64,000 nt of DNA, taken from the NCBI GenBank assembly GCA_963843795.1, contig CAWJLW010000006.1, positions 310,001 to 374,000 of the forward strand. Direction: 5' to 3'. Below, piece by piece: positions 2,013-63,278 of the stretch (position 1 is its first letter; every line of letters starts with the position of its first letter). A model generated the notes under the pieces. That model saw nothing but the letters and a program-made list of their open reading frames with translations, had not been told where the DNA came from and searched no databases. The position numbers were made by a program, and so were the translations under genes. This DNA comes from an uncultured bacterium. Its GTDB lineage: Bacteria > Armatimonadota > Abditibacteriia > Abditibacteriales > Abditibacteriaceae.

Positions 2013-2384
2013 CTGAAATCCTTAGGCGCCGCCTAAACGTCGCAATTTAAACCCAAACTATCACTTAACTCAAAACACGACTGCATTGTTCAAAAAATTG
2101 TTCCGGTATCCCTACAATTTACAACCCGAAAAAGCCGCTTGTCAAATTATACTGCCTGGGGCTTTGGATGCCTTTTCATTCCGACTTTCGAGTATTCCCC
2201 GTTGAGCGCCAAACCTCACTTCGCCGAAACTTTATCAAGGTGTGGTGCGGCTTCCACGAAAAAATTACTGGTCCTGAAACCAAATTATGACACCGCTTCG
2301 CCCAGCACCGCTTTGACGATTATCGAAAGTTGTATCCCCGCGTTCGACCTTCCTGCAAGTACTTGCGGGGCAAAGTTCGCGATT

Positions 2385-3113
2385 TCAAGAAACGCTCTGG
2401 CAGGAAACGATGACGCGATAGGGCGAGTGAGGCAGCGTGCAAGTGATGAGGGTGAGCATAGCCGGGCCGTTGGGATCGGATTGTAGCACGCTGGTATCAA
2501 GCTCCGAAACCTGTCCGATTTGCAGCACTTGATAATCGAAACTTTCGTCGCGCGTTTGCAAGCGTATGATCGAACCGGGCATCAGACCTTCAATTTTATA
2601 AAACCACGAACCGGCGACGTTGCGATGACCGGCGATGACGCAGTTTCCCCGCCGTCCCGGCAGCGCGGTTTGCGGATAATGAATCGGCCCCCGCGCCAGA
2701 TCGGCTTCCGAAGTGCGCTGCACGACAACTGCATCCAAATCCATATCGGGCGAAACGATACGCGTTTTAGGCCATTCGGGTGTGGTAGGCGTAATTATCT
2801 GCGGCGCAGCCATTTCCACACCACTGGCCGCCTGACCCGCTTTGCTGGCGCTCGTCGGTTTTTTCAATGCTGGTTTGGCGCGTGCTTTCTCGGCGGACGT
2901 TTTCGCTGCTGGCGTGCCTGAATTTTTCGATTTCGGGTTTTGCGTGCTCGGCGTGTTTTGCCATTCGGCCATTAATTGACGTTGGCTCCACCGAGCGTAA
3001 GCCGATTGAGCGGCAGGCCACAGTGCGAGGGCAATACCCAGAACGGCGATTACAGATAAGGCGGCGCGCAGGCGTTGGCGCGAGGTTTGGGATAAAGAAG
3101 ATTGGGCGTTCAT
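2385..3113 (-). CDS. Sortase (class D/E-like)
   Basis: N-terminal TM anchor; IAGHRN (His), TLITC (Cys) and downstream Arg; likely start MNAQ at 3113. Confidence 0.9.
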   Translation of the reverse strand: MNAQSSLSQTSRQRLRAALSVIAVLGIALALWPAAQSAYARWSQRQLMAEWQNTPSTQNPKSKNSGTPAAKTSAEKARAKPALKKPTSASKAGQAASGVEMAAPQIITPTTPEWPKTRIVSPDMDLDAVVVQRTSEADLARGPIHYPQTALPGRRGNCVIAGHRNVAGSWFYKIEGLMPGSIIRLQTRDESFDYQVLQIGQVSELDTSVLQSDPNGPAMLTLITCTLPHSPYRVIVSCQSVS

Positions 3114-3203
3114 GAGAACGCAGTTTAATATGTGTGCCACCTAGCCGCTGTCGTAAGTCGCCTGCAAGTCCTTGCCGCAGATTTAGCGCGTTCATAAACG
3201 ACA

Positions 3204-3236
3204 CATCGCCCGCAGTCAATAAAACTGCGGGCGATG
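3204..3236. terminator. Stem-loop between sortase-substrate gene and sortase
   Basis: CATCGCCCGCAGT-7 nt loop-ACTGCGGGCGATG perfect 13-bp stem. Confidence 0.55.
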
Positions 3237-3255
3237 AAATTGCGTGTTTTTAAGT

Positions 3256-3654
3256 TTAGTTGGCGCTCAGCTTGCGACGCATCAACAGCGCGCTGCCAGC
3301 AACCAACGAACCCAATAGGGTGAAAACCAACGGCTCGCCACCGGTGTTGTCCAAAGGTGCAGAGTCGGTCACTGCGGTGGTGCCGTAACCCGGATCGCTT
3401 CCATAATCGACGGTTTGTGTGGTGGTGGTCGAAGTCGAATCAATGGTTCCTGCGGTACCGGCTCCGCCCATTGAGGATCCCCCACCCATGCTACGCGAAT
3501 CGGTGTATCCGCTGCCACCCATGCTGCTAGAGCCGCTCGAACCCATTGGCGCACCGCTCGCTGATGGCGAAGCCGATTGTGCCATTGCCATGCCCATCAA
3601 AGCTACTGTTGTGCCGACGCTCATCAGAGCGCTCAAACCTGTACGTCGTGTCAT
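3256..3654 (-). CDS. Small Ser/Gly/Thr-rich secreted protein with LPXTG-like sorting signal
   Basis: GAGGAGG RBS; signal peptide ending AMA-Q; C-terminus LDNTG + hydrophobic helix + MRRK tail. Confidence 0.8.
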   Translation of the reverse strand: MTRRTGLSALMSVGTTVALMGMAMAQSASPSASGAPMGSSGSSSMGGSGYTDSRSMGGGSSMGGAGTAGTIDSTSTTTTQTVDYGSDPGYGTTAVTDSAPLDNTGGEPLVFTLLGSLVAGSALLMRRKLSAN

Positions 3655-3919
3655 GTTTTCCTCCTCGAAAGTGGCCTTTATTTTGGCAGAAAACCCCGCG
3701 CCATGCCAAGCCCTTTCGCCCTAAATTCTCTTGGATTGCTTTCAACCGTGCGTGTGGTTGTACGCTGCATCATGCCCATCATACCATTTTAGAGAGCACG
3801 GCGTCAATCATTTCAGTGTTGTTCTTTTGAAATCACACGCGTGTCCAACCTGTCACACTGCGTTTTTCGGGCCAGAAATTTTACCTGCCCGCAAATTTTT
3901 TATAAAGTCCCACATTTTT

Positions 3920-4970: not shown

Positions 4971-5807
4971 ATGCTTCATCTCGATTCTCTGGTCATCGCC
5001 TACGATGCCGCTCCCGTTTTAAATAACGTTTCCTTGCGCGCCCAACGTGGCCAAATCACGGCGATTATCGGCCCCAACGGTTGCGGAAAATCCACTCTTT
5101 TGCGCTGTGCGGCCGGTTTACTCAAACCCCAACAAGGTCGCGTGGCTTGGAATGAACAGGATATTTTCGCGCTCGATGCGCGCCAACGCGCGCGGCACAT
5201 CGCGTTTCTGCCGCAAATTTCGAGTGCGGTCAATCTAACGGCGCGCGACATGGTCGCCTTGGGACGTACGCCCCATCTGGGCGATTTCGGCACGTTGGGC
5301 GAGCGCGATTGGCAAATCGTCGAACAATCTTTAAATCGCGTGGGCGCGACCGATTTGGCCGCTCGTGCGGTCGATGAACTTTCGGGCGGACAGCGTCAGC
5401 GCGTTCTCATCGCCCGCGCTCTGGCGCAACAAACGCCAGTGCTTTTGTTGGATGAACCGATTTCTAACCTCGATTTGCGTTATCAATTTGAAATTTTGAA
5501 ATTAGTGCGCGAATTAGCCGGTGCAAGTACTTGCACCGAGGAAAATGCCAATCCGTGCATTATCATCGTGCTGCATCATATTAATTTGGCTTCGAGCGTG
5601 GCCGATGCGATGCTGTTGCTGGATGAGCAGGGCGCAATCATCGCGTACGGTGCGCCCGAAATCGTGATGACGGGCGAAAATTTAAAGCGCGCTTTCGGCG
5701 TGCCGTTAGCAATCGCGCCGCATCCGCTAAGTGGACGTCCGCAGGCACAGGCGATGTGGAGCTTTGAAAACAACGATAAAAACGGAATCGACGCGCCTTC
5801 GTTATAA
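4971..5807 (+). CDS. FepC/BtuD-family ABC ATP-binding protein
   Basis: Walker A GPNGCGKST, LSGGQRQR, LLLDEP. Confidence 0.9.
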   Translation: MLHLDSLVIAYDAAPVLNNVSLRAQRGQITAIIGPNGCGKSTLLRCAAGLLKPQQGRVAWNEQDIFALDARQRARHIAFLPQISSAVNLTARDMVALGRTPHLGDFGTLGERDWQIVEQSLNRVGATDLAARAVDELSGGQRQRVLIARALAQQTPVLLLDEPISNLDLRYQFEILKLVRELAGASTCTEENANPCIIIVLHHINLASSVADAMLLLDEQGAIIAYGAPEIVMTGENLKRAFGVPLAIAPHPLSGRPQAQAMWSFENNDKNGIDAPSL

Positions 5808-5815
5808 TTTGCCCT

Positions 5816-6845: not shown

Positions 6846-8720
6846 ATGTGTGGAATTGTCGGATATATCGGAGAAAAACCCGCGATTGCGATTTTGGAAA
6901 ACGGTCTCAAGCGTTTGGAATATCGTGGTTACGATTCAGCGGGCGTTGCAGTTTTAAACGGTCACGGGATTCAAATGTGCCGCACGTTGGGCAAACTCAA
7001 AGCTTTGTCCGATGCGCTGCAAGAACAGCCTTTAGAAGGACATTTGGGCATTGGTCACACACGTTGGGCTACACACGGCGAACCCAGCGAAATTAACTCG
7101 CATCCTCACCGCGATGCGCAAAGCCGCGTTTACGTGTGTCACAACGGCATCATTGAAAACTATGCCGATTTGCGCCGCGAATTGGAAGCCGAAGGTGTCG
7201 GATTTCGCTCGCAAACCGATAGCGAAGTCGTACCGAACTTAATCGCGCGCGCCTACGATGCACTTTCCGAAATCGAAGGTGAAGAACGTTTCGCTCAAGC
7301 TGTGCGCGAAGGTTGCGCCCGTCTGCGTGGTGCTTATGCGCTGGCCGTGATGCACGAAGATTGGCCGGAAACTCTGATTGCGGTGCGCCACAAATCGCCG
7401 CTCGTCATCGGTTTGGGCGAAAACGAAAATGTCTGTGCCAGCGATATTCCCGCGCTGTTGAATATCACGCGTCGTGTGGTGTTTTTGGATGATGGCGAAA
7501 TGGCAATTTTGAAGCGCGACCATTATCAAGTCTGCGATTTGGATGATGGCAAGAAGCGCAGCAAAGCCGTCGAACGCATTGATTGGGACGAAGGTCAGGC
7601 CGAAAAGGGCAACTACGCTCACTTCATGCTCAAAGAAATCAACGAACAGCCCGAAGTGATGAACCGCTTGTTGGCGCGTTACACCAATCCCGAACGCACG
7701 CACATCACGCTGGATGGCATCAACCTTGAACCCAAAGAATTGCTTGGTTTGCGCCGCATTTTTATTCAGGCGTGCGGCACGAGTTGGCATTCCGGTTTGA
7801 TCGGCAAGTACTTGCTGGAGCGTTTGCCCAACATCGCAGTTGACGTCGATACCAGCAGCGAATTTCGCTATCGTGGCGCGATTTTAGCGCCCGATACGCT
7901 AGTCATTGCAATTTCGCAAAGCGGGGAAACCGAAGATACCAAGGCCGGAATTGAAGAAGCCAAAAGTCGCGGTTTGAAAGTGCTGTCGATTGTGAACGTG
8001 CCTGGCAGCGCCATCACGCGCATGAGCGACGGTACGATTTATACCAACGCCGGGCCAGAAATTTCAGTTGCTTCGACCAAAGCCTACACTGCCCAGATCG
8101 GCGCGCTATATTTGCTTTCTCTGTATTTAGGCGAATTGCACGGTTTGATCGACGAAGATCGGATGCAGCGCCGTCTGGCAAAATTGACCCAAACGGCCGA
8201 ATTGATGGAGCAAATGCTGCAACCCGAATCGAAAACATATCAGGCCGTGCAGGAAGTCGCTGCTGCAATCAAAGATTCGCAGCACGCTTTATTCATCGGT
8301 CGCGGTTTCGGTTATCCATCGGCACTGGAAGGCGCTCTCAAATTGAAAGAAATTTCCTATATTCACGCCGAAGGCTACCCGGCTGGCGAACTCAAACATG
8401 GTCCGTTGGCCTTGATTGATAAGAAAGAGCGCACTCCAGTTCTCGCGATTGCGACCAGCGGCATTGTCTATGAGAAGATGATTTCCAATATGCAGGAAGT
8501 GCGCACGCGTGGTGGTCGCGTCATCGCAGTCGCGGGCGAAAGCAACCGGGAAGTCGCCGAACACGCCGATCACGTCATCCCGATTCCCGAACTTACCGAA
8601 AGTTTCGCCCCGTTTCTCACTGCCGTGCCGCTGCAACTGCTGGCGTATTATATTGCTTTGGCGCGTGGCAACGAAGTCGATCAACCACGCAATTTGGCCA
8701 AAAGTGTCACGGTCGAATAA
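6846..8720 (+). CDS. glmS: Glutamine-fructose-6-phosphate transaminase
   Basis: MCGIVG start, LEYRGYDSAG, GHTRWATHG, SQSGET, PRNLAKSVTVE. Confidence 0.98.
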   Translation: MCGIVGYIGEKPAIAILENGLKRLEYRGYDSAGVAVLNGHGIQMCRTLGKLKALSDALQEQPLEGHLGIGHTRWATHGEPSEINSHPHRDAQSRVYVCHNGIIENYADLRRELEAEGVGFRSQTDSEVVPNLIARAYDALSEIEGEERFAQAVREGCARLRGAYALAVMHEDWPETLIAVRHKSPLVIGLGENENVCASDIPALLNITRRVVFLDDGEMAILKRDHYQVCDLDDGKKRSKAVERIDWDEGQAEKGNYAHFMLKEINEQPEVMNRLLARYTNPERTHITLDGINLEPKELLGLRRIFIQACGTSWHSGLIGKYLLERLPNIAVDVDTSSEFRYRGAILAPDTLVIAISQSGETEDTKAGIEEAKSRGLKVLSIVNVPGSAITRMSDGTIYTNAGPEISVASTKAYTAQIGALYLLSLYLGELHGLIDEDRMQRRLAKLTQTAELMEQMLQPESKTYQAVQEVAAAIKDSQHALFIGRGFGYPSALEGALKLKEISYIHAEGYPAGELKHGPLALIDKKERTPVLAIATSGIVYEKMISNMQEVRTRGGRVIAVAGESNREVAEHADHVIPIPELTESFAPFLTAVPLQLLAYYIALARGNEVDQPRNLAKSVTVE

Positions 8721-8739: not shown

Positions 8740-8773
8740 AAAAGCGCGCTGCAAGTACTTGCAGCGCGCTTTT
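8740..8773. terminator. Bidirectional terminator-like perfect palindrome with GCAAGTACTTGC core
   Basis: AAAAGCGCGCT-core-AGCGCGCTTTT between convergent glmS and lon stops. Confidence 0.75.
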
Positions 8774-11303: not shown

Positions 11304-11897
11304 TCAAACTTTGCTGCGCGAGATTTGCGCCACGATTTCCCGCGCTACTTCGCGCGCACTGGTGTTGTCGCCATCAATTACAATATCCGCACTCTCTTCG
11401 TACCATTGCGCACGATTTCTCAACAGTTCCTGCACGCGCTGCGTCGTCTGTTGCAAATTGAGTGCGCCTTGCCCATCAATCAGAGGGCGCGTGCCAGATT
11501 GACTGCGAATGCGTTGGGCTAAAGTTTGTGGCGTAGCGCGCAAATACACGACCGTCGCACAAGCATTTCGGAGCAACTGTCGATTTTCGCTTTGTGTCAC
11601 CACACCGCCGCCGGTCGACAGCACGCCATCATTTTGCAAGGCCGCTTGCAACAATTCAGTTTCCAGACCACGAAATGCAGCTTCGCCATGCAGAGCAAAA
11701 TAATCGGCAATCGAAGTCTCGATTGAATTTTCGATGAGCGCGTCCAAATCGCGCCACGGCCATTGCAGTTGCGCGGCCAGAAGTTGTCCGACGTGCGATT
11801 TGCCGCTGCCCATGAAACCGATGAGGACAATTTTATCGTTAGCAATATTTTGATTCATGCGTGCTGCAAGTACTTGCGATGCCATTTCGTTCATCAA
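11304..11897 (-). CDS. aroK: Shikimate kinase
   Basis: LIGFMGSGKS, GEAAFR, STGGG, RPL; true start may be ATG 11858. Confidence 0.93.
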   Translation of the reverse strand: MMNEMASQVLAARMNQNIANDKIVLIGFMGSGKSHVGQLLAAQLQWPWRDLDALIENSIETSIADYFALHGEAAFRGLETELLQAALQNDGVLSTGGGVVTQSENRQLLRNACATVVYLRATPQTLAQRIRSQSGTRPLIDGQGALNLQQTTQRVQELLRNRAQWYEESADIVIDGDNTSAREVAREIVAQISRSKV

Positions 11898-11903: not shown

Positions 11904-13214
11904 TCACGAGCGCAAATGATTCTGGCCGCGCACGATGTATTTATTGGTCGTCAGCGCTTCCAAACCCAGCGGCCCGCGCGCGTGCAACTTTTGCGTCGAG
12001 ATGCCGATTTCCGCGCCCAAACCGAACTCGAAACCATCGGTGAAACGCGTCGAAGCGTTGGCGTAAACCGCTGCGGCATCGACACGGTTGAGAAAAATTT
12101 CGGCGTTGGCGTAATCGCGCGTGACAATTGCTTCGGAATGGCCAGTACCATGATTTTCGATGTGTTCCAATGCGCTTTCCAAATCATCGACAAGGGCAAT
12201 CGACAAAATTAAATCGTTGTATTCCGTGTCCCAATCTTCATCTGTCGCTTCTGGCATCGCGACAATTGCGCGCGCGTTTTCGTCACCGCGCAATTCAACG
12301 CCCGCGCTTTTTAAACGCCCACAGATTGGAGCAAGTACTTGCGTGGCACAATTGCGATGCACGAGCAGCGTTTCCAGCGCGTTGCACGTACTGGGACGTT
12401 GAACTTTGGCGTTAAAAACCAGTTCGACAGCATCTTCGACTTGCGCCGATTCATCGACAAACATATGACAAACGCCACCGGCGGCGAAAATAATGGGCAC
12501 GGTTGCGACTGCCGAAAGCGATTTTTTCAAAGCCTCGCCGCCGCGCGGCACGATTAAATCAATCAAGCCCGACAACTGCGCCATTTCGGTCGTCGCGGCG
12601 CGGTCGGTCGTATTAATCATGGCAATCGCACCATCGGGCAAACCGCATTTTTGTGCGGCTTCATTGAGAATTTCGCCCAGCAGCGTGTTGGAGTGAAAGG
12701 CTTCGCTTCCTCCGCGCAAAATCGTCGCGTTGCCGCTTTTAAGGCACAAAATCGCCGCTTCAACGGTGACGTTGGGACGCGATTCGTAGATAATTCCGAT
12801 AACGCCTAATGGTGTGCGCACCTGCTCGATTTTCAATCCGTTGGGCAAAGTTTGCCCTCCGGTAATTTGTCCGACCGGATCGGGCAACGCGGCGACTTGA
12901 CGACAACTTTCGGCCATCGCTGCGATGCGCTGCGGTGTGAGTTTCAAGCGATCCAACATCGCTTCGCTCAAGCCGCGCTCGCGTCCGGCGACCAAATCGC
13001 GCCCGTTGGTTTCGATAATTTCCGCTTCTCGCTCGATCAAAGCATCCGCCATGGCGTGCAGCGCGTCGTCTTTCTGTTTCGACGACAGAGCGCGCAACTT
13101 TCCAGAAGCGCGCTTAGCTTTTTCGGCCAAAGCGACAATTTGAGCACGCAGCGGATTTTCAGAATCGGCGTGACCGTTTTGAGAATGAGGTGCGTTTGAG
13201 ATTTCGATTTTCAT
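11904..13214 (-). CDS. proA: Gamma-glutamyl phosphate reductase
   Basis: PLGVIGIIYESRPNV, CNALETLL, NASTRFTDGFEFGLGAEIGISTQKLHARGP. Confidence 0.97.
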   Translation of the reverse strand: MKIEISNAPHSQNGHADSENPLRAQIVALAEKAKRASGKLRALSSKQKDDALHAMADALIEREAEIIETNGRDLVAGRERGLSEAMLDRLKLTPQRIAAMAESCRQVAALPDPVGQITGGQTLPNGLKIEQVRTPLGVIGIIYESRPNVTVEAAILCLKSGNATILRGGSEAFHSNTLLGEILNEAAQKCGLPDGAIAMINTTDRAATTEMAQLSGLIDLIVPRGGEALKKSLSAVATVPIIFAAGGVCHMFVDESAQVEDAVELVFNAKVQRPSTCNALETLLVHRNCATQVLAPICGRLKSAGVELRGDENARAIVAMPEATDEDWDTEYNDLILSIALVDDLESALEHIENHGTGHSEAIVTRDYANAEIFLNRVDAAAVYANASTRFTDGFEFGLGAEIGISTQKLHARGPLGLEALTTNKYIVRGQNHLRS

Positions 13215-16075: not shown

Positions 16076-16486
16076 TTACGATTGGTTCGCCAAGCCCGCA
16101 AGTACTTGCACCTGAGTTTCCGTCACCGGAACGACGCTCAAGCGCGGCAAACGCACCAAATCCCAGTCCTGCAATTGGTCGCACGCTTTGATTTGCTGTA
16201 ACGTCACCGCGCGCTTCCATGGTTCGCCCGCGCGCACGTCGCAAACCGCCCACTTTTCGTCGTCGCCTTGCGGGTCGGCATACGCGCCGCGCGTCACCTT
16301 AGCCGTGCCAATACACGCGCGTTCGGTTCCGGTGTGATAGATAATTGCCACGTCGCCCTCTTGAATTTGCCGCAGATATTGCAACGCCAGAGGTTGTTTC
16401 ACGCCGTCCCAGACAGTTTCGCCGTCGCGCTGCAAATCGGCGAACGAGTAATGATCGGGTTCAGTTTTTAGGAGCCAAATCGCCAT
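16076..16486 (-). CDS. EVE domain protein
   Basis: WLLKTEP..YSFADL, WDGV, YHTG, RLSVVPV. Confidence 0.9.
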   Translation of the reverse strand: MAIWLLKTEPDHYSFADLQRDGETVWDGVKQPLALQYLRQIQEGDVAIIYHTGTERACIGTAKVTRGAYADPQGDDEKWAVCDVRAGEPWKRAVTLQQIKACDQLQDWDLVRLPRLSVVPVTETQVQVLAGLANQS

Positions 16487-23616: not shown

Positions 23617-23650
23617 AACCGCGCTCTGCAAGTACTTGCAGAGCGCGGTT
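23617..23650. terminator. Perfect palindrome with GCAAGTACTTGC core between convergent genes
   Basis: AACCGCGCTCT-core-AGAGCGCGGTT. Confidence 0.55.
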
Positions 23651-25118: not shown

Positions 25119-25154
25119 AAAAAGCGCTCTGCAAGTACTTGCAGAGCGCTTTTT
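25119..25154. terminator. Bidirectional terminator-like palindrome with GCAAGTACTTGC core
   Basis: AAAAAGCGCTCT-core-AGAGCGCTTTTT between convergent stops. Confidence 0.75.
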
Positions 25155-25167: not shown

Positions 25168-26409
25168 TTACAAAGCGCGCCAACCTATATCGCGTCGATA
25201 TTGCGCGCCTGCAAACTCAATTTCCTCGATTCCGCGATACGCCGCCGTGCGCGCGCTGCTGAGATCATCGCCCAAACCGGTTGCGGCCAGAACGCGCCCG
25301 CCGTTGGTGACGATTTCGCCATTTTCGGTTTTAGTGCCCGCGTGAAAAATCAGCGCGTTTTTCTGCGCGTCGTCCAATCCGGAAATCACGTCGCCTTTGT
25401 GCGAACTGGCCGGATAGCCTTTGCTGGCCATCACGACCGTCATCGCGGCTTGCAACGACCATTGGACATGATGCGAATTCAACAGCGCGCCATTGCCGAC
25501 GCACGACAGCAGAAGCGGCAGCAGATCGCTTTCCATGCGCGGCAAAACGACTTGGGTTTCCGGATCGCCGAAACGACAATTGTATTCCAGAACCTTCGGG
25601 CCGTCTTCGGTCAGCATCAAACCGGCATAAAGCACGCCGCGATAAATGATGCCTTCGCTTTTCAAGGCGCGCACTGTGGGCAGTAAAATCGTCTCAAGAG
25701 CGTGATTGACTGCGTTGGAATCAAAAATCGGAACCGGCGAATAACAGCCCATGCCTCCGGTGTTCGGGCCAGTGTCGCCCTCACCGATGCGCTTATGATC
25801 TTGCGCGGGCACCAGCGGCAACACGTTTTCACCATCGGTGAGAGCCAAAAGCGAAACTTCTGGGCCGCTGAGAAATTCCTCAATCAAAACCTGCTGCTGA
25901 CCGCGCGCCGCATTTATCACCACATCGACAGCTTCCATCGCTTCCGCGCGATTGTTGGCTAATACGACACCTTTGCCCAACGCCAAACCATCAGCTTTGA
26001 CGACCATTGGCTTGTCGGGCGCGTCCTGCAAGTACTTGCGGGCGCTTTCGCCGTTCTCAAAGGCGTGAAAATCGCCACTGGGAATGGCATATTTGCGCAT
26101 CAATTCTTTGCAAAAAATTTTCGACGATTCCAATTGGGCGGCTTCTTGCGTCGGCCCAAAGGCGGGAATGCCGACGGCTTCCAATTGATCGACCAGGCCA
26201 GCAGCCAGAAAGTCGTCCGGCCCGATGACCACTAAATCGGCGCCGATTCGCTGCGCAATTTCGACCGGTTCGCCTTGCAAGCATTCGGCAATTTGGGCAA
26301 TACCTGCATTGCCGGGGCTGCAAAACAGTTGCGTTAAAAGCGGACTTTGCTTTAATTTCCAGCACAGCGCGTGCTCACGCCCGCCGCCGCCGATGACTAA
26401 AACTTTCAT
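25168..26409 (-). CDS. purD: Phosphoribosylamine-glycine ligase
   Basis: GGGGREHAL, KADGLALGKGV, QDHKR..GDTGPNTGGMG, EYNCRFGDPETQ. Confidence 0.98.
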   Translation of the reverse strand: MKVLVIGGGGREHALCWKLKQSPLLTQLFCSPGNAGIAQIAECLQGEPVEIAQRIGADLVVIGPDDFLAAGLVDQLEAVGIPAFGPTQEAAQLESSKIFCKELMRKYAIPSGDFHAFENGESARKYLQDAPDKPMVVKADGLALGKGVVLANNRAEAMEAVDVVINAARGQQQVLIEEFLSGPEVSLLALTDGENVLPLVPAQDHKRIGEGDTGPNTGGMGCYSPVPIFDSNAVNHALETILLPTVRALKSEGIIYRGVLYAGLMLTEDGPKVLEYNCRFGDPETQVVLPRMESDLLPLLLSCVGNGALLNSHHVQWSLQAAMTVVMASKGYPASSHKGDVISGLDDAQKNALIFHAGTKTENGEIVTNGGRVLAATGLGDDLSSARTAAYRGIEEIEFAGAQYRRDIGWRAL

Positions 26410-26436: not shown

Positions 26437-26470
26437 CAAAACGCCCTGCAAGTACTTGCAGGGCGTTTTG
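26437..26470 (-). terminator. Palindrome with GCAAGTACTTGC core downstream of dnaB
   Basis: CAAAACGCCCT-core-AGGGCGTTTTG. Confidence 0.6.
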
Positions 26471-28104: not shown

Positions 28105-28142
28105 TTAAAAACGCGCTGCAAGTACTTGCAGCGCGTTTTTAA
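28105..28142 (-). terminator. Palindrome with GCAAGTACTTGC core downstream of rplI
   Basis: TTAAAAACGCGCT-core-AGCGCGTTTTTAA; a variant copy follows at 28158. Confidence 0.65.
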
Positions 28143-33055: not shown

Positions 33056-34048
33056 TCAATCCATCAACGCTTTTGCTGCGGACCAACCGGAACGAATGGC
33101 GCCTTCGACTTTCGAACCGCCGAATGCGTCGCCCGCGAAGATTAAATTCGCTGCCTCCCAGCGCAAAAATCCGTCGTCGCGCGCGTGATTGGGTTTGGAA
33201 AACTTCCAGCGCGCGACCGATGATGCACGGATTTCCGCGCCCAGAAACACTTGCGCGGCACTAGCAAGTACTTGCACCGTGCTCGCGTCGTCCAAAGCAT
33301 AATTTTGCGCGCTCCACTGGGGCGCGCCGTGAACGGTAATGGCGCCTTCGACACCCGAAACGCCTTTCTGAAAATTATCGCCGATCCACGCAATTGGTTC
33401 TTCTTCGCAATACAACGCGCCCGGAGCGGGAACGCGACCCGCATTTTCTAGCCACAGCAGAGCGGCCACGCACGATTCATAAGTCACATCTTCCAATTGC
33501 GCGCGCAAATTGGTGGGCAAATTCACCGCGCCCGCATCCAATAACGCCAGCGATTGTGGAACCGGACATGTAAGCAACAGCGAACGCGAAGTGCAAGTAT
33601 TTGCATCATCGAAAGTCAGTGTCCACACGTTGTCATGCCATTCCAATTTTGTCACGCGCTGTGCGGTCTGAATGTTTAAATCTTGCGCAAGATTTTTGGC
33701 GAGGGAACTCATGCCGCTCGTGGCGCAATAGCGCGGATGACCATCGCTTTGCGCTTCAATTTTGCCATCGAGATGCGCGGTTGTCTGACCGCGAAACCAT
33801 TCGTGCGCCAAGCCATTGTCGCACCAATCGCGCACGATTTGTTGAAAGCGCTCGTCGCGCGCGGTGAAAAATTGCGCTCCGTGATCGAAGTGCGCGGTTT
33901 CGCCGTTATCTTCCAAGCGCCGCGTCGCCATGCGCCCGCCCACGCCGCGCCCTTTGTCGTAAATCGTGGTTTCGATGTTGTGGGATTTTAGGTCGCGCGC
34001 GCAGGATAATCCGCTCAGTCCGGCTCCGATGATAGTGATTTCGTTCAT
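33056..34048 (-). CDS. Renalase-like FAD-dependent oxidoreductase
   Basis: IIGAGLSGL, DKGRGVGGRMATRR, FDHGAQFFT, GDAF..VEGAIRSG. Confidence 0.9.
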   Translation of the reverse strand: MNEITIIGAGLSGLSCARDLKSHNIETTIYDKGRGVGGRMATRRLEDNGETAHFDHGAQFFTARDERFQQIVRDWCDNGLAHEWFRGQTTAHLDGKIEAQSDGHPRYCATSGMSSLAKNLAQDLNIQTAQRVTKLEWHDNVWTLTFDDANTCTSRSLLLTCPVPQSLALLDAGAVNLPTNLRAQLEDVTYESCVAALLWLENAGRVPAPGALYCEEEPIAWIGDNFQKGVSGVEGAITVHGAPQWSAQNYALDDASTVQVLASAAQVFLGAEIRASSVARWKFSKPNHARDDGFLRWEAANLIFAGDAFGGSKVEGAIRSGWSAAKALMD

Positions 34049-34065: not shown

Positions 34066-34103
34066 AAAACAGTCCGCTGCAAGTACTTGCAGCGGACTGT
34101 TTT
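34066..34103 (-). terminator. Palindrome with GCAAGTACTTGC core downstream of htpX
   Basis: AAAACAGTCCGCT-core-AGCGGACTGTTTT. Confidence 0.6.
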
Positions 34104-42165: not shown

Positions 42166-43455
42166 TTAGCGTGGAATGCGACGGATGTAGATGTTTTTGA
42201 AATAAAGCGGCGCGCCGTGGTGTTGCAGCTCGATTTGGCCGGTCGGATAAATCGGCTTGTCGCGCTCCCAATAGTTCTCCATCGTGACGTTGTGAACCAC
42301 CAGTTCATTGTTGAGAAAAACCGTGACTTTATCACCGATCATCAGAATGCGGAACCTATTCCACTCGCCGATGGGTTTATCGGCTTTGCGCGTGGGTTTG
42401 CTCGGATTCTTTTGGTTGTTATACAAACCGCCCGAACCAACCTCATCGTCCCAGATTTGAACTTGTGGGCTGCCGCGCAAATAAAGGCCGCTATCGCCTT
42501 TGGGTTCAATTTTCCAATCGACGAGCATCTCGAAATCGGCGAAATCTTCGCTTGTGCAAAGGCTGTTGGCCTTGCCATCGTAAGTGATGACGCCATCAAC
42601 TGCTTTCCAGTGCTGAAACGCTTTTTCGGTCGCAACCTTTTGTGCCTCTGCAAGTACTTGCGCACTCATTTTCGCGCGCGCCGGTGGGTCGGCCACCAAA
42701 CCTTTCCAACCCGCCAGGCTCATTCCATTGAACAGCGCGGAAAAGCCGACGGGCGGCACATTATTGGGTGCGGGACGCGATAAATCTTGAATGGCGATGT
42801 TACGGAACTGAACTTCAGCGGGACCATGTCCGCAGAAACCAACGTAACCCCGTTCGCGCAGCATGCCGGGATGTTGGGCCAGAACTTCTTTATCAGTCAC
42901 GTTATTCAGGTTAGTATCAACGGTCGTGATGCCATTGACCGTCACGGTAATGTGGCGACCGACGGCGCGAATTTCTTCGCTGTTCCATTCGCCTACCGGT
43001 TTCAGTGCGCCGCGCTTGGCAGGAGCGACTTTATAGATCGAGCCATGATATTGTCCGGCTTCGAGATTGGCGTACTGAGGAGCCGAATCGTCGAGCACCT
43101 GAACTTCCATGCCAACATAAGCGGCATCGCCTTCTTGAGGTGAGCGAATCGCCACCCCGTTGTTGCCCGCAGCGGATAATTTGAACTCGAAGCGAAAAAC
43201 GAAATCACTATACTGTTTTTGCGTGTAAAGATTGCCACCACCTTCGGGCGGGCAAACCAGGTTGCCATTTTTCACGACGTAGCCCGGCCCCGTAGCGCCT
43301 TTGATCGTCCAACCATCCAAGCTGTTGCCATCAAATAAAGACACAAAAGGAATGCCGTTTGTCGGTTCGGAAGTTTGTGCCGCGCAACGATTGTCGACAG
43401 AAGTTGACACAGCAATCAAGGCAGAAAGAAAAACTTGTATAATAGGTTTCATCAT
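42166..43455 (-). CDS. Secreted tandem DUF1080 (3-keto-glycoside hydrolase/hydratase family) protein
   Basis: Two SLFDG/ALFNG..L.GW..GEWN..F.NI domains; signal peptide. Confidence 0.9.
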   Translation of the reverse strand: MMKPIIQVFLSALIAVSTSVDNRCAAQTSEPTNGIPFVSLFDGNSLDGWTIKGATGPGYVVKNGNLVCPPEGGGNLYTQKQYSDFVFRFEFKLSAAGNNGVAIRSPQEGDAAYVGMEVQVLDDSAPQYANLEAGQYHGSIYKVAPAKRGALKPVGEWNSEEIRAVGRHITVTVNGITTVDTNLNNVTDKEVLAQHPGMLRERGYVGFCGHGPAEVQFRNIAIQDLSRPAPNNVPPVGFSALFNGMSLAGWKGLVADPPARAKMSAQVLAEAQKVATEKAFQHWKAVDGVITYDGKANSLCTSEDFADFEMLVDWKIEPKGDSGLYLRGSPQVQIWDDEVGSGGLYNNQKNPSKPTRKADKPIGEWNRFRILMIGDKVTVFLNNELVVHNVTMENYWERDKPIYPTGQIELQHHGAPLYFKNIYIRRIPR

Positions 43456-48461: not shown

Positions 48462-49376
48462 ATGACCGAACATCCGATTCCCCCCTTGAAAAAGCCCGCC
48501 AGCAGTGCGCCGATTGAATGGCTGCGCCAGCTCGATTTGTTGCTGCGCGGCGAAGCGACCAAATTGTCTGCGCTGCAGCGCGGGCGCATCGAACTTCCCG
48601 AAAACGGTATTTCCTTAATCGTGCTTGCGCTGGGCTTGTTTTACGGCGCGTGTATGGGAACTTTCGCGATTTTTAACAAAGGCGAAATCTTGGGCGCGCT
48701 GTTGCAGATGTGCGCGACGATGGCCAAAGTTCCCGCGCTGTTTTTCTCGACGCTTTTGGTCACCTTTCCTTCGCTTTACGTTTTCAACGCGCTCGTCGGT
48801 TCGCGCTTGACTCTGGCCAGCGTGTGGCGCTTGATGATCGCGATGCTCGCTGTGATGATGGCGATTCTGGCCTCGCTTGGCCCGATTGTCGCGTTCTTCT
48901 CGATTAGCACCACGAATTACCCGTTCATGCTACTGCTGAACGTCATCGTGTTCGGCGTGGCGGGTTTTCTGGGCCTGAAATTCCTGCTGCACACGCTGCA
49001 TCGCCTGAGCATCGTTTTACAAGACGCCAAACCAATCGAAAACACGCCCGCAAGTACTTGCAGCGCGCTGGAAACTGAAAACACCGACGATTGTCTGCCC
49101 GCCGTGCCCGCACCCGATGCCAAAACTCCAATCAAAGCGCAGCGCAAAGAAGGCGCTTTAGATCGCGTCGATGATCGGATGCTGGGTTCGGATGTAAAAA
49201 CGGTTTTCTATTTATGGATTGTGGTTTTCGCTTTGGTCGGCGCGCAGATGAGCTGGCTTTTGCGCCCCTTTATTTCGGCTCCCGATAAGCCATTTGTACT
49301 GTTCAGCGCGCGTGAATCGAACTTCTACGCGGCGATTTGGGACGCGCTGCAACACGTTCTGGGAATGTCGTATTGA
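48462..49376 (+). CDS. Multi-TM hypothetical membrane protein (Yip1-like)
   Basis: GGAGG RBS; FYGACMG, KVP.LF, VGAQMSWLLRPFI, SNFY. Confidence 0.75.
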   Translation: MTEHPIPPLKKPASSAPIEWLRQLDLLLRGEATKLSALQRGRIELPENGISLIVLALGLFYGACMGTFAIFNKGEILGALLQMCATMAKVPALFFSTLLVTFPSLYVFNALVGSRLTLASVWRLMIAMLAVMMAILASLGPIVAFFSISTTNYPFMLLLNVIVFGVAGFLGLKFLLHTLHRLSIVLQDAKPIENTPASTCSALETENTDDCLPAVPAPDAKTPIKAQRKEGALDRVDDRMLGSDVKTVFYLWIVVFALVGAQMSWLLRPFISAPDKPFVLFSARESNFYAAIWDALQHVLGMSY

Positions 49377-52947: not shown

Positions 52948-53058
52948 AGTTTACGCGCCGCACGCGCGAAAGTGTGCTGCAAGTACTTGCAGCACACTTT
53001 ACGAGTTGTAATTTCGTGAGTAAAACCTGTCCGCGTAAACTAGAGGGCAATTAAAAGG

Positions 53059-54354: not shown

Positions 54355-56747
54355 AAAAATCTTACTTTGCCGCCTTCGTGCTGTGTAATGCTGCTTTTGG
54401 CACTGCAACTTTTCCCTTTGCCAACTTTCCAGGCCTCACTGTGGCGCGCGCCGCGCGTCTGCAAGTACTTGCAGACGGTCTTGCGTTATTCAATCGGCAA
54501 ATTCAGCAAGCGCCGACTGAACCGATTAACCTGATTGCCAATGGAAACTTCGTGCGCGAAAGCGAAGTTTGGAATTTGAGCGGCACTGCAGATACCACTT
54601 ATCTGGCGGCTCCGCCCGAAGCCAGAGGCCGCGCTTATCGCGTGCGCGTCGCGCCCGCTGCGGATGCCGCACCGTGGTCGATTGCGCTGCGTCAGACTTT
54701 GAATACCAGCGTGAAAAACGGACAAAAGTTGGTTGTGCGATTGTGGCTGCGTTCGCCGCAAAGCGTGCCGGTCGGATTGATTGTCGAAAGTTCCGGCCCG
54801 GCTTACGATAAAATCGTGGAAAAAACCGTAACGGCGTCGCCGCAGTGGCAGCAGTTCGAGGCGAGCGGGCAAAGCACCCATGATTACGAAAACGGAAAAG
54901 TTGGTCTGCTGTTGCAATTGGCGCGTGGCACGGGCGACGTTGAAATCGCCGGAGTGCAGGTTTTCGATCCCGACGCGCCGCAACAAAGCGCACTGCGCTC
55001 GACGGCCACGCCACAAAATCCGCAACTGTTGTTGAAAAATGGCACTTTCGGCGCGCCCGATCTCAGCGACTGGAGCGGCTTCGGTGCTTTCGATGACGCC
55101 AACGCGCGCCTCAAAGCCAGCATCATTCCCGCTGCTGCCAATATCGTCGGCAGTGAGCGCGCGCTGCAATTGAAGAGCGATCCGACGCCCGAAATGCAGC
55201 CGTGGAATTTGAAACTGAGCCAACCTATCTCTCAACCCATCGAAGATGGCGATACGATTTACGCGCGCGTATGGATGCGTTCGCCCGACAATGCGCGTGC
55301 AGGCATTATTTTCGAAGAAGTCGCCGCGCCTAATGCCAAAGACATCAATCAAAGCGTGAAGCTGAAGCCGCAATGGCAGGAGTATCGGTTCGCCGGCATC
55401 GCGCGTCGCGCCTTTGCGCCCGGCGAGTCGCAATTCAACTTTTTTCTTGGCTATGGGAAAGGCACCGTCGAGATCGCCAATTTACGTCTGGAGAATTACG
55501 GCAGCGCGCCGCTTGAATCGTTCGACCAAACCATCGACTATTTCGGCGGCCAAATCGACGACCAAAGCTGGCGCGCTCCGGCTCTCCAACGCATCGAAAG
55601 AATTCGCAAGGGCGATTTCACGGTTCGTGTGGTCGATGCCAAAGGCAAGCCGGTTTCAGGTGCAACAGTCTCGGTCGAACAGCAGAAACACTGGTTTAAA
55701 TGGGGCACAGCGGGCCCAGCGAGCCTCTTGCTCGACGACACAAGCCCTGATAGCGAAATCTATCGTCAGCACATCAAGAAGTTGTTCAACACTTTCGTGT
55801 TTGAAAACGATTTCAAGTGGCCGCAATCGCAAACACCCGCCGATCTGAAGCGCATCGACAGCGCAATCAACTGGCTTAACCAAAACGGTATCAATAATAT
55901 TCGCGCGCACAACGTAGCGTGGGGTTCCGCACAATATCTGCCGCAGGGCGCGCTTGATTTGGACAAAGACGCCTTGACGAGATTAGTCGAGGAGCGCGCG
56001 CGCACGATTGTCGAATTCGGGCGCGGCAAGGTTTACGTGTGGGACGTGGTGAACGAAGCGGCGACCAACACCGCGCTGTGGGAGAAAATCGGCTGGGACG
56101 AATTTGGCAAGGTTTACAAAATCGCGCGCGCTTATGATCCCGATGTGAAATTGGCTTACAACGATTACAACATCGTGAACGAGGCTCCCGATGGCGGCAA
56201 GCAGCGTGTGAAAGTTTTCGAACGCATCAAAACTTTGCAAGCGCAAGGCGCACCCTTAGATATTATCGGCCTGCAATCACATTTCGGGGTGCCGCTGACG
56301 CCGATGAAGCGCGTTCTGGAAATCATGGACGAAACGGCTAAATTCGGCACCAAACTCGAAATCACTGAATTTGATGTCGGCGTGAAAGACGACAAAATGA
56401 ACGCGGCTTTCACGCGCGATTTTCTGACTGCGGTTTTTTCGCATCCCGCCGCCGATGCTTTCGTGATGTGGGGTTTCTGGGCCGGTGCGCACTGGCGCGC
56501 CAGCGATGGCGGCGCGATTTTTAATCGCGATTGGACACCACGTCTGGCTGCAACCGCGTATGAAGATTTGGTGCTGAAACAGTGGTGGACAAAGTTGAAC
56601 GGCCAGAGCACTAAAACCGGTCGGTTTTCCAATCGCGCTTTTTACGGCACGCATCTCATCACCGTCGAGAAAAACGGTAAGCGCACCACGCAAACTGTCG
56701 CGCTTGTGCCCGGTGGCGCCAGAGAATTTTCTGTCGAACTTCCTTGA
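54351..56747 (+). CDS. GH10 endo-1,4-beta-xylanase-like enzyme with two CBM4/9-like modules
   Basis: FENDFKW, WDVVNE, YNDYN, IGLQSH, ITEFD, WGFW; two N-terminal NG.F..PW..WQ modules; ATGA overlap with upstream gene. Confidence 0.88.
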   Translation: MKKSYFAAFVLCNAAFGTATFPFANFPGLTVARAARLQVLADGLALFNRQIQQAPTEPINLIANGNFVRESEVWNLSGTADTTYLAAPPEARGRAYRVRVAPAADAAPWSIALRQTLNTSVKNGQKLVVRLWLRSPQSVPVGLIVESSGPAYDKIVEKTVTASPQWQQFEASGQSTHDYENGKVGLLLQLARGTGDVEIAGVQVFDPDAPQQSALRSTATPQNPQLLLKNGTFGAPDLSDWSGFGAFDDANARLKASIIPAAANIVGSERALQLKSDPTPEMQPWNLKLSQPISQPIEDGDTIYARVWMRSPDNARAGIIFEEVAAPNAKDINQSVKLKPQWQEYRFAGIARRAFAPGESQFNFFLGYGKGTVEIANLRLENYGSAPLESFDQTIDYFGGQIDDQSWRAPALQRIERIRKGDFTVRVVDAKGKPVSGATVSVEQQKHWFKWGTAGPASLLLDDTSPDSEIYRQHIKKLFNTFVFENDFKWPQSQTPADLKRIDSAINWLNQNGINNIRAHNVAWGSAQYLPQGALDLDKDALTRLVEERARTIVEFGRGKVYVWDVVNEAATNTALWEKIGWDEFGKVYKIARAYDPDVKLAYNDYNIVNEAPDGGKQRVKVFERIKTLQAQGAPLDIIGLQSHFGVPLTPMKRVLEIMDETAKFGTKLEITEFDVGVKDDKMNAAFTRDFLTAVFSHPAADAFVMWGFWAGAHWRASDGGAIFNRDWTPRLAATAYEDLVLKQWWTKLNGQSTKTGRFSNRAFYGTHLITVEKNGKRTTQTVALVPGGAREFSVELP

Positions 56748-56759: not shown

Positions 56760-56799
56760 ATAAAAAGGCTCCTGCAAGTACTTGCAGGAGCCTTTTTAT
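56760..56799. terminator. Bidirectional terminator-like 40-bp perfect palindrome with GCAAGTACTTGC core
   Basis: ATAAAAAGGCTCCT-core-AGGAGCCTTTTTAT between convergent genes. Confidence 0.75.
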
Positions 56800-57977: not shown

Positions 57978-58136
57978 TTTGTCTCCTCGGAAATATGCTA
58001 CGCTTTGCTCTTGCAAATTGGGTGACAAAATTGCGCGTTGTTTTGACAATCACCTGAAAAGTTACAATAAAAGCGCTGCAAGTACTTGCAGCGCTTTTCC
58101 TATCTCAATTCGTTGTCTGGCTCATCCTTTTTTGGC

Positions 58137-60801: not shown

Positions 60802-60809
60802 ATAGCAAC

Positions 60810-60859
60810 AAAAACCGAAAAGCGCCCCGCAAGTACTTGCGGGGCGCTTTTCGGTTTTT
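60810..60859 (+). terminator. 50-bp perfect palindrome with GCAAGTACTTGC core after Anbu
   Basis: AAAAACCGAAAAGCGCCCC-core-GGGGCGCTTTTCGGTTTTT. Confidence 0.75.
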
Positions 60860-61016
60860 CGGCTTAATATAGTGCGCGCGGCTTTGGCTGTGTTGAAAAC
60901 GCGCGCTGAAATGCGGATGATTGGATTGGAAAAATCTATTTCTATTTTAAGTGAAAATCCATGAGAAAGACATCAGATTTTACACATCGGCAACACGCGC
61001 TGGCTAAGCTGAAAAC

Positions 61017-61835
61017 ATGAATTTAAAAGTCGCGGCTCACGCCGTTTATCACACAGCTTTACAAACTTCTGCTTTATTACAACTGGAAGTTTCCGATGCA
61101 CCCGGACAGCGTACCAAAAGCGAAAGTTTGAATATCGGCCCGCCTCTCGAAGCCGCGCCTTTTTTGGACATTTTTGGTAATCGGAATCGTCAACTCGTTT
61201 CACCTGAAGGTGCCGATTTGACTATTGACTACAACGCGCAAATTTCGCTCGACAGTGACACTTCGCCAATCGCGCCTCGTGATTTGCTCGCCGTGCCGAC
61301 GCCACAATTGTCGCCGCGTGAACTCGCGATGACGTTTCCATCGCGCTACTGTCAAAGCGATTTGCTGGCGCAGGCCGCCAGCGATTTGTTCGGTTCATCC
61401 AAAACAGGCGCGGCACTGGTTTATGAAATCTGCGATTGGATGTTCCATAAAGTGACCTACGAATACGGCCACACCACCGCAACCACGAGCGCAGCCGATA
61501 TTTTTCTCACGCGCATCGGCGTGTGCCGCGATTTCTCCCATTTGGCCATCACCTTTTGCCGCGCGCTGAACTTACCGGCGCGTTATGCTGCGGGCTATTG
61601 TCTCGAACTTGAACCACCCGATTTTCACGCGTATTTTCAGGTTTATCTCGCCGCGCCCAACCCGACGTCCGAAGCGGCCGGACAATGGTATTCGTTCGAT
61701 GCGACGGTCGAAAAGTTGCGACGCGGCCTGGTGAATATCAGCGTGGGCCGCGATGCCGTCGATACTTCAATGCTGACCTTTTTCGGAAACGCTGAACTCA
61801 AAGAACAAACTGTCAGTGTGCAGGAAATCGACTGA
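61017..61835 (+). CDS. Transglutaminase-like protein
   Basis: PSRYCQSD, GVCRDFSH, DFHAYF, FDAT, GRDAVD. Confidence 0.92.
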   Translation: MNLKVAAHAVYHTALQTSALLQLEVSDAPGQRTKSESLNIGPPLEAAPFLDIFGNRNRQLVSPEGADLTIDYNAQISLDSDTSPIAPRDLLAVPTPQLSPRELAMTFPSRYCQSDLLAQAASDLFGSSKTGAALVYEICDWMFHKVTYEYGHTTATTSAADIFLTRIGVCRDFSHLAITFCRALNLPARYAAGYCLELEPPDFHAYFQVYLAAPNPTSEAAGQWYSFDATVEKLRRGLVNISVGRDAVDTSMLTFFGNAELKEQTVSVQEID

Positions 61836-61879
61836 GATTGATGAAAGCGAGCTGCAAGTACTTGCAGCGCAATTTTATT

Positions 61880-63164
61880 TCACGGCACCCAACCGTGGCG
61901 CACAAAAGCGGAAAAAAGCAGCAGATTAACAAACACGAGCGCTTCAATTGTCCAGCGCAGGCGATTTTTGCGCGCGGCGATAATCGCGATGGCAATTGGC
62001 AGAAGCCACGCTAGAAAAACGTGGCGCGGCAGGCTGAGATAGGGCGCGGAGTAAAAACACAAAGCCGCAGCGATGGCAGCCAGCGAATATACGATTTCGG
62101 TGGCGTGCGGTCGCGGTCGCAAGTACTCTGCAGGCCCATAACCCAAAGCCCGCCATCGCCCAACCCAGCAGCCAGTCAATATACAGCGCATAAGCGGTGG
62201 GAGTTTCGGAAAGGGGAAACGCCTTAATTAAACGCAAGGTTTCCAGAAACGGTTTCCATGGCGTGCTCAGGCCCGAACCCGGCACTACTAATCGAGTGGA
62301 AGGTGACACAATCCAACTTTTCACCAGAGCGCCCGCTCCGCTGTCGCTTTCGACTTCGCCCAGAACGAGCACGCGATAAATCGAATACGACGCATAAGCC
62401 AAAATCGGCAGCGACAAAGCGAAAATGCTGGAAGTTTGAAAGCTATGGTGTTTGCTGGCGCTTCGATTTTCGCGCCACATTTGCCACCATTGCCATGCCA
62501 AAGGCAGCAATAAAACCAAACCCTGCTGGCGCGCCAGCGTGGCAGTTGCCGCCAGCGCACCGGCCAGCCACAAGCGCCGCTCGCGCATCGCCCACAGCGC
62601 GCCGATGGACGCGGCCAAAAAAGTGCTTTCGGTGTAAGGCGCGAGCAAGACCCAGCCCAGCGGCCCCAAAACCAACGCCCACGCCGCGCCTTGAATCGCA
62701 GAATGTTGAATTCCAACCGTCAGTTGCGGTGCATAGAATTTGGCGACGTAGCGCGCGATCAAGACACAACAAATCCAGCACGCGAGCGTGGAAACGATGA
62801 GCAGCGAAAGTTGGGCGTTGCCGGTCAAGGCGTAAAAAGGTTTGGCCAAAAGCGGAAACAACGGATGAAACGAAGCGGTGCCATCATCGAGACGATAACC
62901 ACGCGTCACGATGCGTTCATAATATTCGTAATCGTAGCGCATCCATGGCGAAACCCACACGCGATGCCACCAATCTCCGCTGAGCAGATGCGGCGGCCAC
63001 ACCAGCACGCGTTCTTCTAAAACCGTGTCGGGGAACATGGCCGAAATAAACGCGCCCCACGCGCCCCACAGCACGCGAATCAGCAGCAGCATTCGCAGTG
63101 CGCTGAGCCAGTTCGTCCAATCAACCAGAATTTTTGGCTTCGGTTTCATAGCGTCAGATTGCAT
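61880..63164 (-). pseudogene. GT-C (PIG-V/mannosyltransferase-like) membrane glycosyltransferase with apparent +1 frameshift at ~62128 (real or sequencing error)
   Basis: WMRYDYEYY..I..GY, FHPLFP, PYTESTF, RQQG in ORF 61944-63260; hydrophobic C-terminus with SLPRH in ORF 61880-62191; deleting C62128 fuses the two. Confidence 0.75.
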
Positions 63165-63234
63165 AATTATCGAAGAGTTGCCACTACGGTGAGCCACTAC
63201 AGTGCGCCACTTATTACAACAAAAAACAACAAAA

Positions 63235-63278
63235 AAAGCGCGCTGCAAGTACTTGCGCAAGTACTTGCAGCGCGCTTT
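63235..63278 (-). terminator. 44-bp perfect palindrome containing two tandem GCAAGTACTTGC cores
   Basis: AAAGCGCGCT-core-core-AGCGCGCTTT downstream of the transglutaminase. Confidence 0.7.

Follow-up and report, generated by a model that had tools for sequence, protein, structure and literature searches.

A hyper-abundant AGTAC-centred palindrome in an Abditibacterium relative, its dialects across the Abditibacteriaceae, and a possible origin in a decayed restriction-modification system

The window analysed here is a 64,000-nucleotide stretch of contig CAWJLW010000006.1 (positions 310,001 to 374,000, assembly GCA_963843795.1) from an uncultured member of the Abditibacteriaceae, and it is scattered with copies of a 12-bp palindrome, GCAAGTACTTGC, a word that recurs throughout the genome and has AGTAC-centred counterparts in several relatives. 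The genome under study, G000, belongs to a relative of Abditibacterium, is placed near A. utsteinense by its protein names, and comprises 4.30 Mb in 11 contigs, including contig C6. We counted 43 exact copies in the window (span 2355-63268) against 0.02 expected from shuffles, and 52 copies when one mismatch is allowed. A previous sequence-only reading of this stretch had arrived at about 43 exact copies, as we did; its roughly 13 near-copies come down to nine with a single mismatch, and its ten-thousand-fold enrichment, reckoned from 4^12, was overstated, the excess being about 2,000-fold relative to shuffles. It had also placed copies both between and within genes, where we find 32 and 11, respectively. 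The window features are listed below, with strand given for the coding copies and none assigned to the remaining rows.

2355..63268, 43 dispersed exact copies of GCAAGTACTTGC plus 9 single-mismatch copies; 21 in tandem, 7 in convergent and 4 in divergent spacers, 11 coding
8740..8773, long hairpin with A/T tails and a copy at its tip, convergent glmS/lon spacer; predicted bidirectional intrinsic terminator, GUAC loop, z -5.9
23617..23650, terminator-like hairpin centred on the copy at 23628
25119..25154, terminator-like hairpin centred on the copy at 25131, 3' of purD
26437..26470, hairpin centred on the copy at 26448, dnaB/purD spacer
28105..28142, terminator-like hairpin centred on the copy at 28118, 3' of rplI
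33010..33045, bidirectional terminator-like hairpin centred on the copy at 33022
34066..34103, hairpin centred on the copy at 34079, 3' of htpX
52969..53000, hairpin centred on the copy at 52979, divergent spacer
56760..56799, terminator-like hairpin centred on the copy at 56774
58069..58098, hairpin centred on the copy at 58078
60810..60859, longest hairpin, centred on the copy at 60829, z -9.5
63245..63268, head-to-tail doublet of the 12-mer within one hairpin, one of 24 such doublets in G000
5523..5534, + strand, coding copy in an ABC ATPase gene, Ala-Ser-Thr-Cys
7804..7815, + strand, coding copy in glmS, Lys-Tyr-Leu frame
11866..11877, - strand, coding copy in a shikimate kinase gene, Gln-Val-Leu frame
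12331..12342, - strand, coding copy in proA, Gln-Val-Leu frame
16098..16109, - strand, coding copy in an EVE-domain gene, Gln-Val-Leu frame
26028..26039, - strand, coding copy in purD, Lys-Tyr-Leu frame
33264..33275, - strand, coding copy in a flavin amine oxidase gene, spanned by a short-read contig with 0 differences
36360..36371, - strand, coding copy in a sensor kinase gene
42650..42661, - strand, coding copy in a 3-keto-disaccharide hydrolase gene
49050..49061, + strand, coding copy in an open reading frame of unknown function, Ala-Ser-Thr-Cys frame
54461..54472, + strand, coding copy in a hydrolase-like open reading frame of 826 amino acids

Across G000 as a whole, GCAAGTACTTGC occurs in 2,567 exact copies against 0.12 expected under a motif-masked order-3 Markov model. 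This comparison had been proposed in the sequence-only reading, and its outcome sustains the idea of a genome-wide word resembling the cyanobacterial highly iterated palindrome HIP1 or the DNA uptake sequences (DUS) of Neisseriaceae; the accompanying idea of a trans-acting factor gains support as well, since some factor must select such a word. The consensus is sharp (2,567 exact versus 506 single-mismatch copies). Extension to the 14-mer TGCAAGTACTTGCA retains 1,290 copies and extension to a 16-mer 879; the flanks, though variable, prefer A, G, C/G and then T-rich sequence, and no arm is conserved beyond about 14-16 bp. Approximately 3,800 further GTAC sites lie in G000 outside GCAAGTACTTGC. 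Rfam returned 0 matches in the window, and no published description of GCAAGTACTTGC was found in the literature searched, although such words might be listed in genome-survey supplements. Literature matches to five dialect words were unrelated by title, and further searches returned nothing on repeats in Abditibacteriaceae. The genome-wide dialect word is real and apparently undescribed, although words of its kind are already known.

Placement was assessed with our own ab initio gene prediction (3,443 genes in G000, unvalidated). By these calls, 1,793 copies (70%) are intergenic, 749 (29%) are coding, and 25 lie at edges or contig ends. Coding copies are read as Gln-Val-Leu (490), Lys-Tyr-Leu (144) or Ala-Ser-Thr-Cys (115), while spacers of every orientation carry copies (convergent, 277 of 427; tandem, 1,099 of 2,102; divergent, 235 of 452). 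Stems of at least five extra pairs surround 69% of convergent, 29% of tandem and 17% of divergent copies as well as 4% of coding copies, and about one quarter of all copies sit at the tip of terminator-like hairpins. Five hand-picked long-stem copies have predicted folds with z between -5 and -9.5 and a GUAC loop, and of two hand-picked short-stem copies one folds weakly and the other shows no fold. The terminator hairpin is predicted to be a secondary use of some intergenic copies. Along C6 the density stays at about 30 per 50 kb on either side of the GC-skew turn, with no bias toward origin or terminus, which counts against the matS/parS-type site that had been entertained before. The longest gaps, two of 26 kb, and a site-free contig end hold insertion sequence elements, restriction genes and conjugation-like genes, as judged from the starts of their proteins. 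That contig end, C6:3590000-3623414, reaches 67% GC and carries conjugation-like genes and no copies; it may be a foreign element or a mis-join.

Peptides spelled by the word are inflated in the G000 proteome (ASTC 34-fold, KYLQ 21-fold, and QVLA 15-fold, with control peptides near 1-fold), and 498 of the 561 QVLA occurrences use the motif codons, two of which are rare, versus 0.4% expected. Site density is 0.08 per kb in genes of at least 75% identity and 0.31-0.33 per kb in those below 65%; moreover, identity flanking the sites is 0.44 versus a gene mean of 0.59, which places the sites in variable stretches. Among 77 aligned pairs of a coding site and its ortholog from four relatives, 52 are gap-free within 15 nucleotides. 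Because sites are mostly gap-free, have variable flanks and are few in conserved genes, the pattern fits an origin by substitution at permissive places, with insertion allowed for a minority. The assembly itself shows frame switches in 20 of 231 genes tested, or 0.8 per 10 kb.

Copies are also spaced apart from one another. In G000 there are 0.54-0.72 copies per spacer irrespective of spacer length (30 to >500 bp), coding density is 0.08 per kb close to an intergenic copy and climbs to 0.49 per kb farther away, and genes with zero, one or two occupied flanking spacers hold 0.259, 0.183 and 0.127 sites per kb, respectively. None of seven control words shows a comparable drop, the largest being that of CAGGTG (0.149 to 0.116). 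The pair correlation is 0.44-0.68 at 0.1-1 kb and near 1 further out, and the relative G009 displays the same exclusion, with values of 0.04, 0.25 and 0.64 below 600 bp. From this dip and the filling of gaps between genes and spacers, it follows that the benefit of a site levels off at about 1 kb. A similar curve would result if close pairs were selected against, yet such selection alone would create no sites. At long range there was no significant period, the best being 34 kb (p 0.064) in a test simpler than that of PMC5861425.

The exact word GCAAGTACTTGC has only 0-3 copies in each of 40 relatives, a scarcity that proved misleading because de novo sampling (5-20 kb from each of 19 genomes) revealed dialects. 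Among 27 genomes assigned to Abditibacteriaceae by protein names, AGTAC-core dialects occur in seven, namely G000 and six relatives (hereafter signal genomes): G001 uses CAAAGTACTTTG, G009 and G015 use TCGAGTACTCGA, G012 uses CGAGTACTCG, G006 uses AGTACGGTCGA, mostly in spaced inverted pairs, and in G019 an AGTAC core was seen in a 2.4-kb piece. The G006 element is mostly a 22-24-bp inverted pair, with a perfect second arm in 73 of 152 elements and at most 6 of 10 matches in 40, so that the word is not purely asymmetric. Its arm is balanced over both strands of each locus. Whole-genome forward counts of RAGTACKB divide the family into seven enriched genomes (1,486-4,630), 13 nearly free of it (2-28), and seven in between (107-470), with controls at 286-1,388. 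In addition, 16 of 80 metagenome loci with a methyltransferase homologue are signal-rich, as labelled by eye, and among their dialects are AAAAGTACTTTT, paired AAAGTACGCCY arms, and relaxed forms. Outside Abditibacteriaceae, the 145 genomes sampled from elsewhere in the phylum had no AGTACT excess; a 16-mer search of genome contigs, covering an estimated 15 of 64 parts, found 36 loci with one site each and no second carrier, and a metagenome search with a window protein gave no match.

Some coding sites are orthologous across genera, with their flanks rewritten. The core lies in register at orthologous codons in G001 (5 of 12 versus 4 of 185 same-peptide controls, p 4e-5) and in G009 (5 of 36 versus 10 of 531, p 0.0015). 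In the signal-free genomes G017 (contigs C63, C30, and C56) and G024 (C98), the few AGTACT sites cluster and resemble GCAAGTACTTGC, TCGAGTACTCGA and ATGAGTACTCAT, which suggests islands from signal-rich kin or misbinned contigs.

The survey for lineage variants and co-occurring genes recommended in the sequence-only reading also brought out an enzyme pair that co-varies with the signal. G000 has one N6/N4 methyltransferase match, with a DPPY motif (C6:2517365-2518135), which has no conserved neighbours in the signal genomes among the matches listed. Orthologues are present in 22 of the 27 family genomes (two with internal stops), including all seven signal genomes. After removal of one duplicate, the 80 metagenome loci comprise the 16 signal-rich ones and 63 others; in these 63 signal-free methyltransferase loci GTAC is the most depleted 4-mer (0.40, versus 0.81 in 36 unrelated control loci), and from this depletion, the sole basis for a specificity, we infer that the methyltransferase acts on GTAC. 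A putative nuclease of 215 amino acids adjoins the methyltransferase in G020 and G017, lies on 13 of the 80 metagenome loci, and matches the PADLOC REase_II model (Type II, E 3e-8); its single-sequence structure prediction had a predicted local distance difference test score of only 34, and no solved relative was found. This gene occurs in 13 of 27 family genomes and in none of the seven signal genomes, three of which are only 63-89% complete. All 13 nuclease genomes are signal-free, and 11 of them are nearly free of AGTAC-core words. Among the 22 methyltransferase carriers, the signal is present in 7 of 9 without the nuclease versus 0 of 13 with it (Fisher p 2e-4, with kin not independent). 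The pair lies outside the window. Neither the matS/parS-type reading nor the HUH/REP one gains support.

G016 lacks both enzymes, yet its AGTAC core is depleted, and the cultured Abditibacterium utsteinense has homologues of both. Neither D12 nor C5 methyltransferases were found in G000 or G001, so these genomes share no further such enzyme that might act on the flanks. No characterised GTAC enzyme emerged from searches of phages and plasmids, and a search for a PabI-type GTAC glycosylase, in which the positive control also went without a match, gave 0 of 31 genomes. Directly upstream of the methyltransferase, G014, G005 and G041 carry a gene for a HARE-HTH and Mrr nuclease (L090:7790-8584, L093:579-1376, and L084:1026-1892). 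G010 and G021 contain few AGTACT words (126 and 48 in 7.5-8 Mb), although their sampled GTAC is close to normal and no methyltransferase was detected in them; a different restriction system or a legacy effect could account for this scarcity.

We hypothesize, with chances that we regard as evenly poised, that GCAAGTACTTGC is the species dialect of an AGTAC-centred word acting as a methyl-marked signal for uptake or recombination of self-DNA, spread by drive after decay of a restriction system. Somewhat more tentatively, such words may constitute a third family of self-DNA uptake signals, derived from a decayed GTAC restriction-modification system, in which a methyltransferase-only state and a reader of methyl-GTAC with its flanks would give rise to dialects. 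An ancestral GTAC-specific pair would have kept GTAC rare through cutting; signal-rich genomes retain the methyltransferase and are without the nuclease. The orphan enzyme would mark GTAC, and a reader in the transformation pathway would prefer the core with about four flanking bases per side. Fragments bearing sites would then recombine more, and mutations towards the consensus would spread until about one site per kb saturated the benefit. Where flank preference differs by lineage, some orthologous sites retain the core and take local flanks, and folding predicts that some intergenic copies have been co-opted as terminator hairpins. G000 encodes ComEC, ComEA, DprA and a type IV pilus operon. 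The gene set of the pil operon does not differ between two signal and two signal-free genomes, whose minor pilins are 30-44% identical; no ComP-like receptor was identified, although no search aimed at the ComP family was made.

Several observations weigh against this hypothesis. Methylation and enzyme specificity are argued from composition only, and single mismatches in the GTAC core are not rarer than in the flanks in G000. Carrying the methyltransferase is not in itself predictive of the signal (p 0.28), as G004 and G007 have the enzyme without either nuclease or signal. The G015 enzyme carries EPPY in place of DPPY, and metagenome locus L142 combines the nuclease with mild AGTACT enrichment. 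Alignment gaps lie near 25 of the 77 coding site-ortholog pairs versus a background of about 11%, the core is only weakly conserved in register in G012 (3 of 18, p 0.10) and not at all in G006 (0 of 11), and orthologous gene ends show no shared occupancy in the four genomes compared. On Lon and methyltransferase trees the signal is clustered but patchy, a pattern that would allow, among other orders of gain and loss, a single early origin followed by losses. Competence and pilus genes are present in all signal-free relatives tested as well, and in G000 both pilC and a minor pilin gene are split, although such splits do not clearly exceed the frame-switch rate given above. Finally, no reader protein was found among the competence, pilus, repair and SeqA/GcrA families examined: Mrr (25 of 31 genomes), EVE (26 of 31), GIY-YIG, MutL, DprA, PilC-family, ComEC and ComEA fail to separate signal from signal-free genomes, the MutH family has matches in 4 of 31 genomes, all outside the seven with signal, and SeqA and GcrA families are absent from the five signal genomes searched, where positive controls were detected. 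The stand-alone EVE-domain gene of the window (16076-16486, - strand) lies in a purine operon and recurs in 26 of 27 family genomes, and is not signal-specific.

An intracellular repair ratchet of the Elhai type, in which hemimethylated GTAC with preferred flanks steers the strand choice of mismatch repair so that sites are protected and fill in per kb, is a rather unlikely but serious alternative. The orphan methyltransferase in all seven signal genomes would suit it, as would MutL in the five genomes tested and an exclusion of about 1 kb, which fits the range quoted for methyl-directed repair in the available excerpt of PMC4390886. MutL, however, is found in signal-free genomes too, the MutH family is missing from all seven signal genomes, and the other 3,800 or so GTAC sites of G000 mean that a 12-bp requirement needs a further reader. 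Slightly less probable still is a site for a dimeric chromosome-organising or methylation-reading protein (SeqA-, GcrA- or nucleoid-protein-like) selected at one per kb. Such a protein would explain a palindrome of which both halves are required, together with even spacing, gap filling and a near-constant number of sites per spacer at any length, but neither SeqA nor GcrA was found in the signal genomes searched, the 34-kb period falls short of significance, close kin do without such a word, and lineages differ through turnover of their sites.

The remaining explanations appear much weaker. That GCAAGTACTTGC is the remnant or core of a mobile repeat of the repetitive extragenic palindromic (REP) or miniature inverted-repeat type, spread by an HUH (RAYT) nuclease, strikes us as improbable: the intergenic majority, the hairpin extensions, the excess of gaps near coding sites, the inverted pairs of G006 and two Y1-transposase-like genes of G000 with copies on either side all point that way, but copies on either side of a gene are expected at one site per 1.5 kb, no arm is conserved past about 14-16 bp, the 749 in-frame copies are mostly gap-free and in part orthologous across genera with rewritten flanks, and copies repel rather than cluster. 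The HUH/REP option of the sequence-only reading also lacks a consistent Y1 nuclease, G006 having no Y1_Tnp match. A lineage-specific terminator or RNA-hairpin motif as the sole cause, to which the occupied convergent spacers, their long stems and the strong predicted hairpins would lend themselves, is more doubtful again and largely refuted by G009, where only 13 of 347 copies have such stems; stems are likewise rare in coding copies, 235 of 452 divergent spacers are occupied, and the rewritten proteins would go unexplained. A library or assembly artefact, for which the frame switches might be cited, has a negligible chance in view of the in-frame placement with codon-frame bias, the other dialects in six other assemblies, and a short-read contig of run X1 that agrees with window 33140-33322 at every position, those of the copy at 33264 among them, though this run may derive from the same sampling as the assembly. 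The checks for an artefact and for a known REP family that had been set out in advance thus identified neither.

Among the closest known counterparts are the DUS of Neisseriaceae and the uptake signal sequences (USS) of Pasteurellaceae, which likewise occur as thousands of exact copies about 1 kb apart, far above their near-copies. These systems are further described as having dialects round a common core (PMC3630211), re-use of copies in terminator hairpins (PMC1852404), few copies in recently acquired DNA with point-mutation origin and even spread under drive (PMC7811141), and inflated peptides with placement at variable sites (PMC2817400). Conversely, GCAAGTACTTGC falls outside the GCCGTCTGAA and AAGTGCGGT families, whose consensus in PMC2817400 is non-palindromic, and it comes from another phylum, where most of the dialects are perfect palindromes around a predicted methylation site, with an uptake role that is conjectural. 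HIP1, GCGATCGC, is a highly iterated palindrome found both within and between cyanobacterial genes, and an orphan methyltransferase has its site inside it (PMC4390886, PMC13756078), as may be the case for the words described here; HIP1 has been associated with a methylation-dependent gain in transformation (bioRxiv 2024.09.10.611283) and HIP sites with a periodicity of tens of kb (PMC5861425). In the broad sense, the words described here resemble HIP as hyper-abundant palindromes of coding and non-coding DNA that spread mostly without indels (52 of 77 gap-free). They differ from HIP1 and alternative HIPs in the word itself (12-14 bp with a GTAC core) and in their many species dialects, including spaced inverted pairs, as well as in the strongly intergenic placement of GCAAGTACTTGC in G000, in tracking the loss of a putative cognate nuclease, and in showing short-range exclusion and no significant period of tens of kb. 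Methylated RAATTY with CtsM in Campylobacter jejuni is similar as a palindromic methyltransferase site that distinguishes self from foreign DNA at uptake (PMC8468864), but there the signal is the 6-bp methylation site, whereas here a 4-bp core would act with about 8 bp of lineage-specific flank.

The words described here differ from sites of the matS, parS, Chi and KOPS kinds in that the density along C6 is flat, with no confinement to origin or terminus, and the G006 arm has no strand skew. REP elements have a conserved 20-40-bp arm, a GTAG foot, an extragenic location and a linked Y1 nuclease. The likeness to REP with RAYT lies in abundant intergenic palindromes and hairpins; here, however, there is no conserved long arm or GTAG foot, many copies are in frame, and no Y1 nuclease is consistently present. 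What is distinctive in Abditibacteriaceae is that a single core underlies a series of dialects, and that this series is linked to the state of a restriction-modification pair.

The origin of HIP1 and of uptake sequences is an open question for which each known case provides one word or one reader. The Abditibacteriaceae offer a natural experiment with three states in close kin, in which the site is avoided (nuclease present), near background (mostly with both enzymes missing), or hyper-abundant with dialects (methyltransferase only). If our hypothesis is correct, one family would show both extremes, GTAC purged and GTAC hyper-abundant, together with the transition from one to the other. The family also points to one particular enzyme pair, and a comparison of its dialects could serve to map the flank-specific readers that are predicted. 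Moreover, the 1-kb exclusion range provides a constraint for models of uptake, repair and chromosome structure, and A. utsteinense is a possible nuclease-positive comparator.

Other repeats and avoidances were noted beyond the signal genomes. Five loci of signal-free relatives (L007, L006, L015, L017, and L020) hold other short REP-like repeats (ACACCAGCCACGTCC, AGCAGCCACGGC, CCTCCGCTCCTC, AGGGATGAGG and AGAAGGGGAGAA). In two further families of the phylum, f11 and f34, AGTACT is near absent (0-45 copies per genome), pointing to additional GTAC- or AGTACT-avoiding lineages. Finally, a tailed phage of 38-42% GC (L292, IMGVR_UViG_3300009514_000019; also L231, L249, and L256), with portal, terminase and prohead protease genes and almost no proteins in common with G000, carries TGCAAGTACTTGCA every 3-4 kb or so, mostly as GTGCAAGTACTTGCAC and at gene boundaries, where it is probably an independent phage operator or promoter element.

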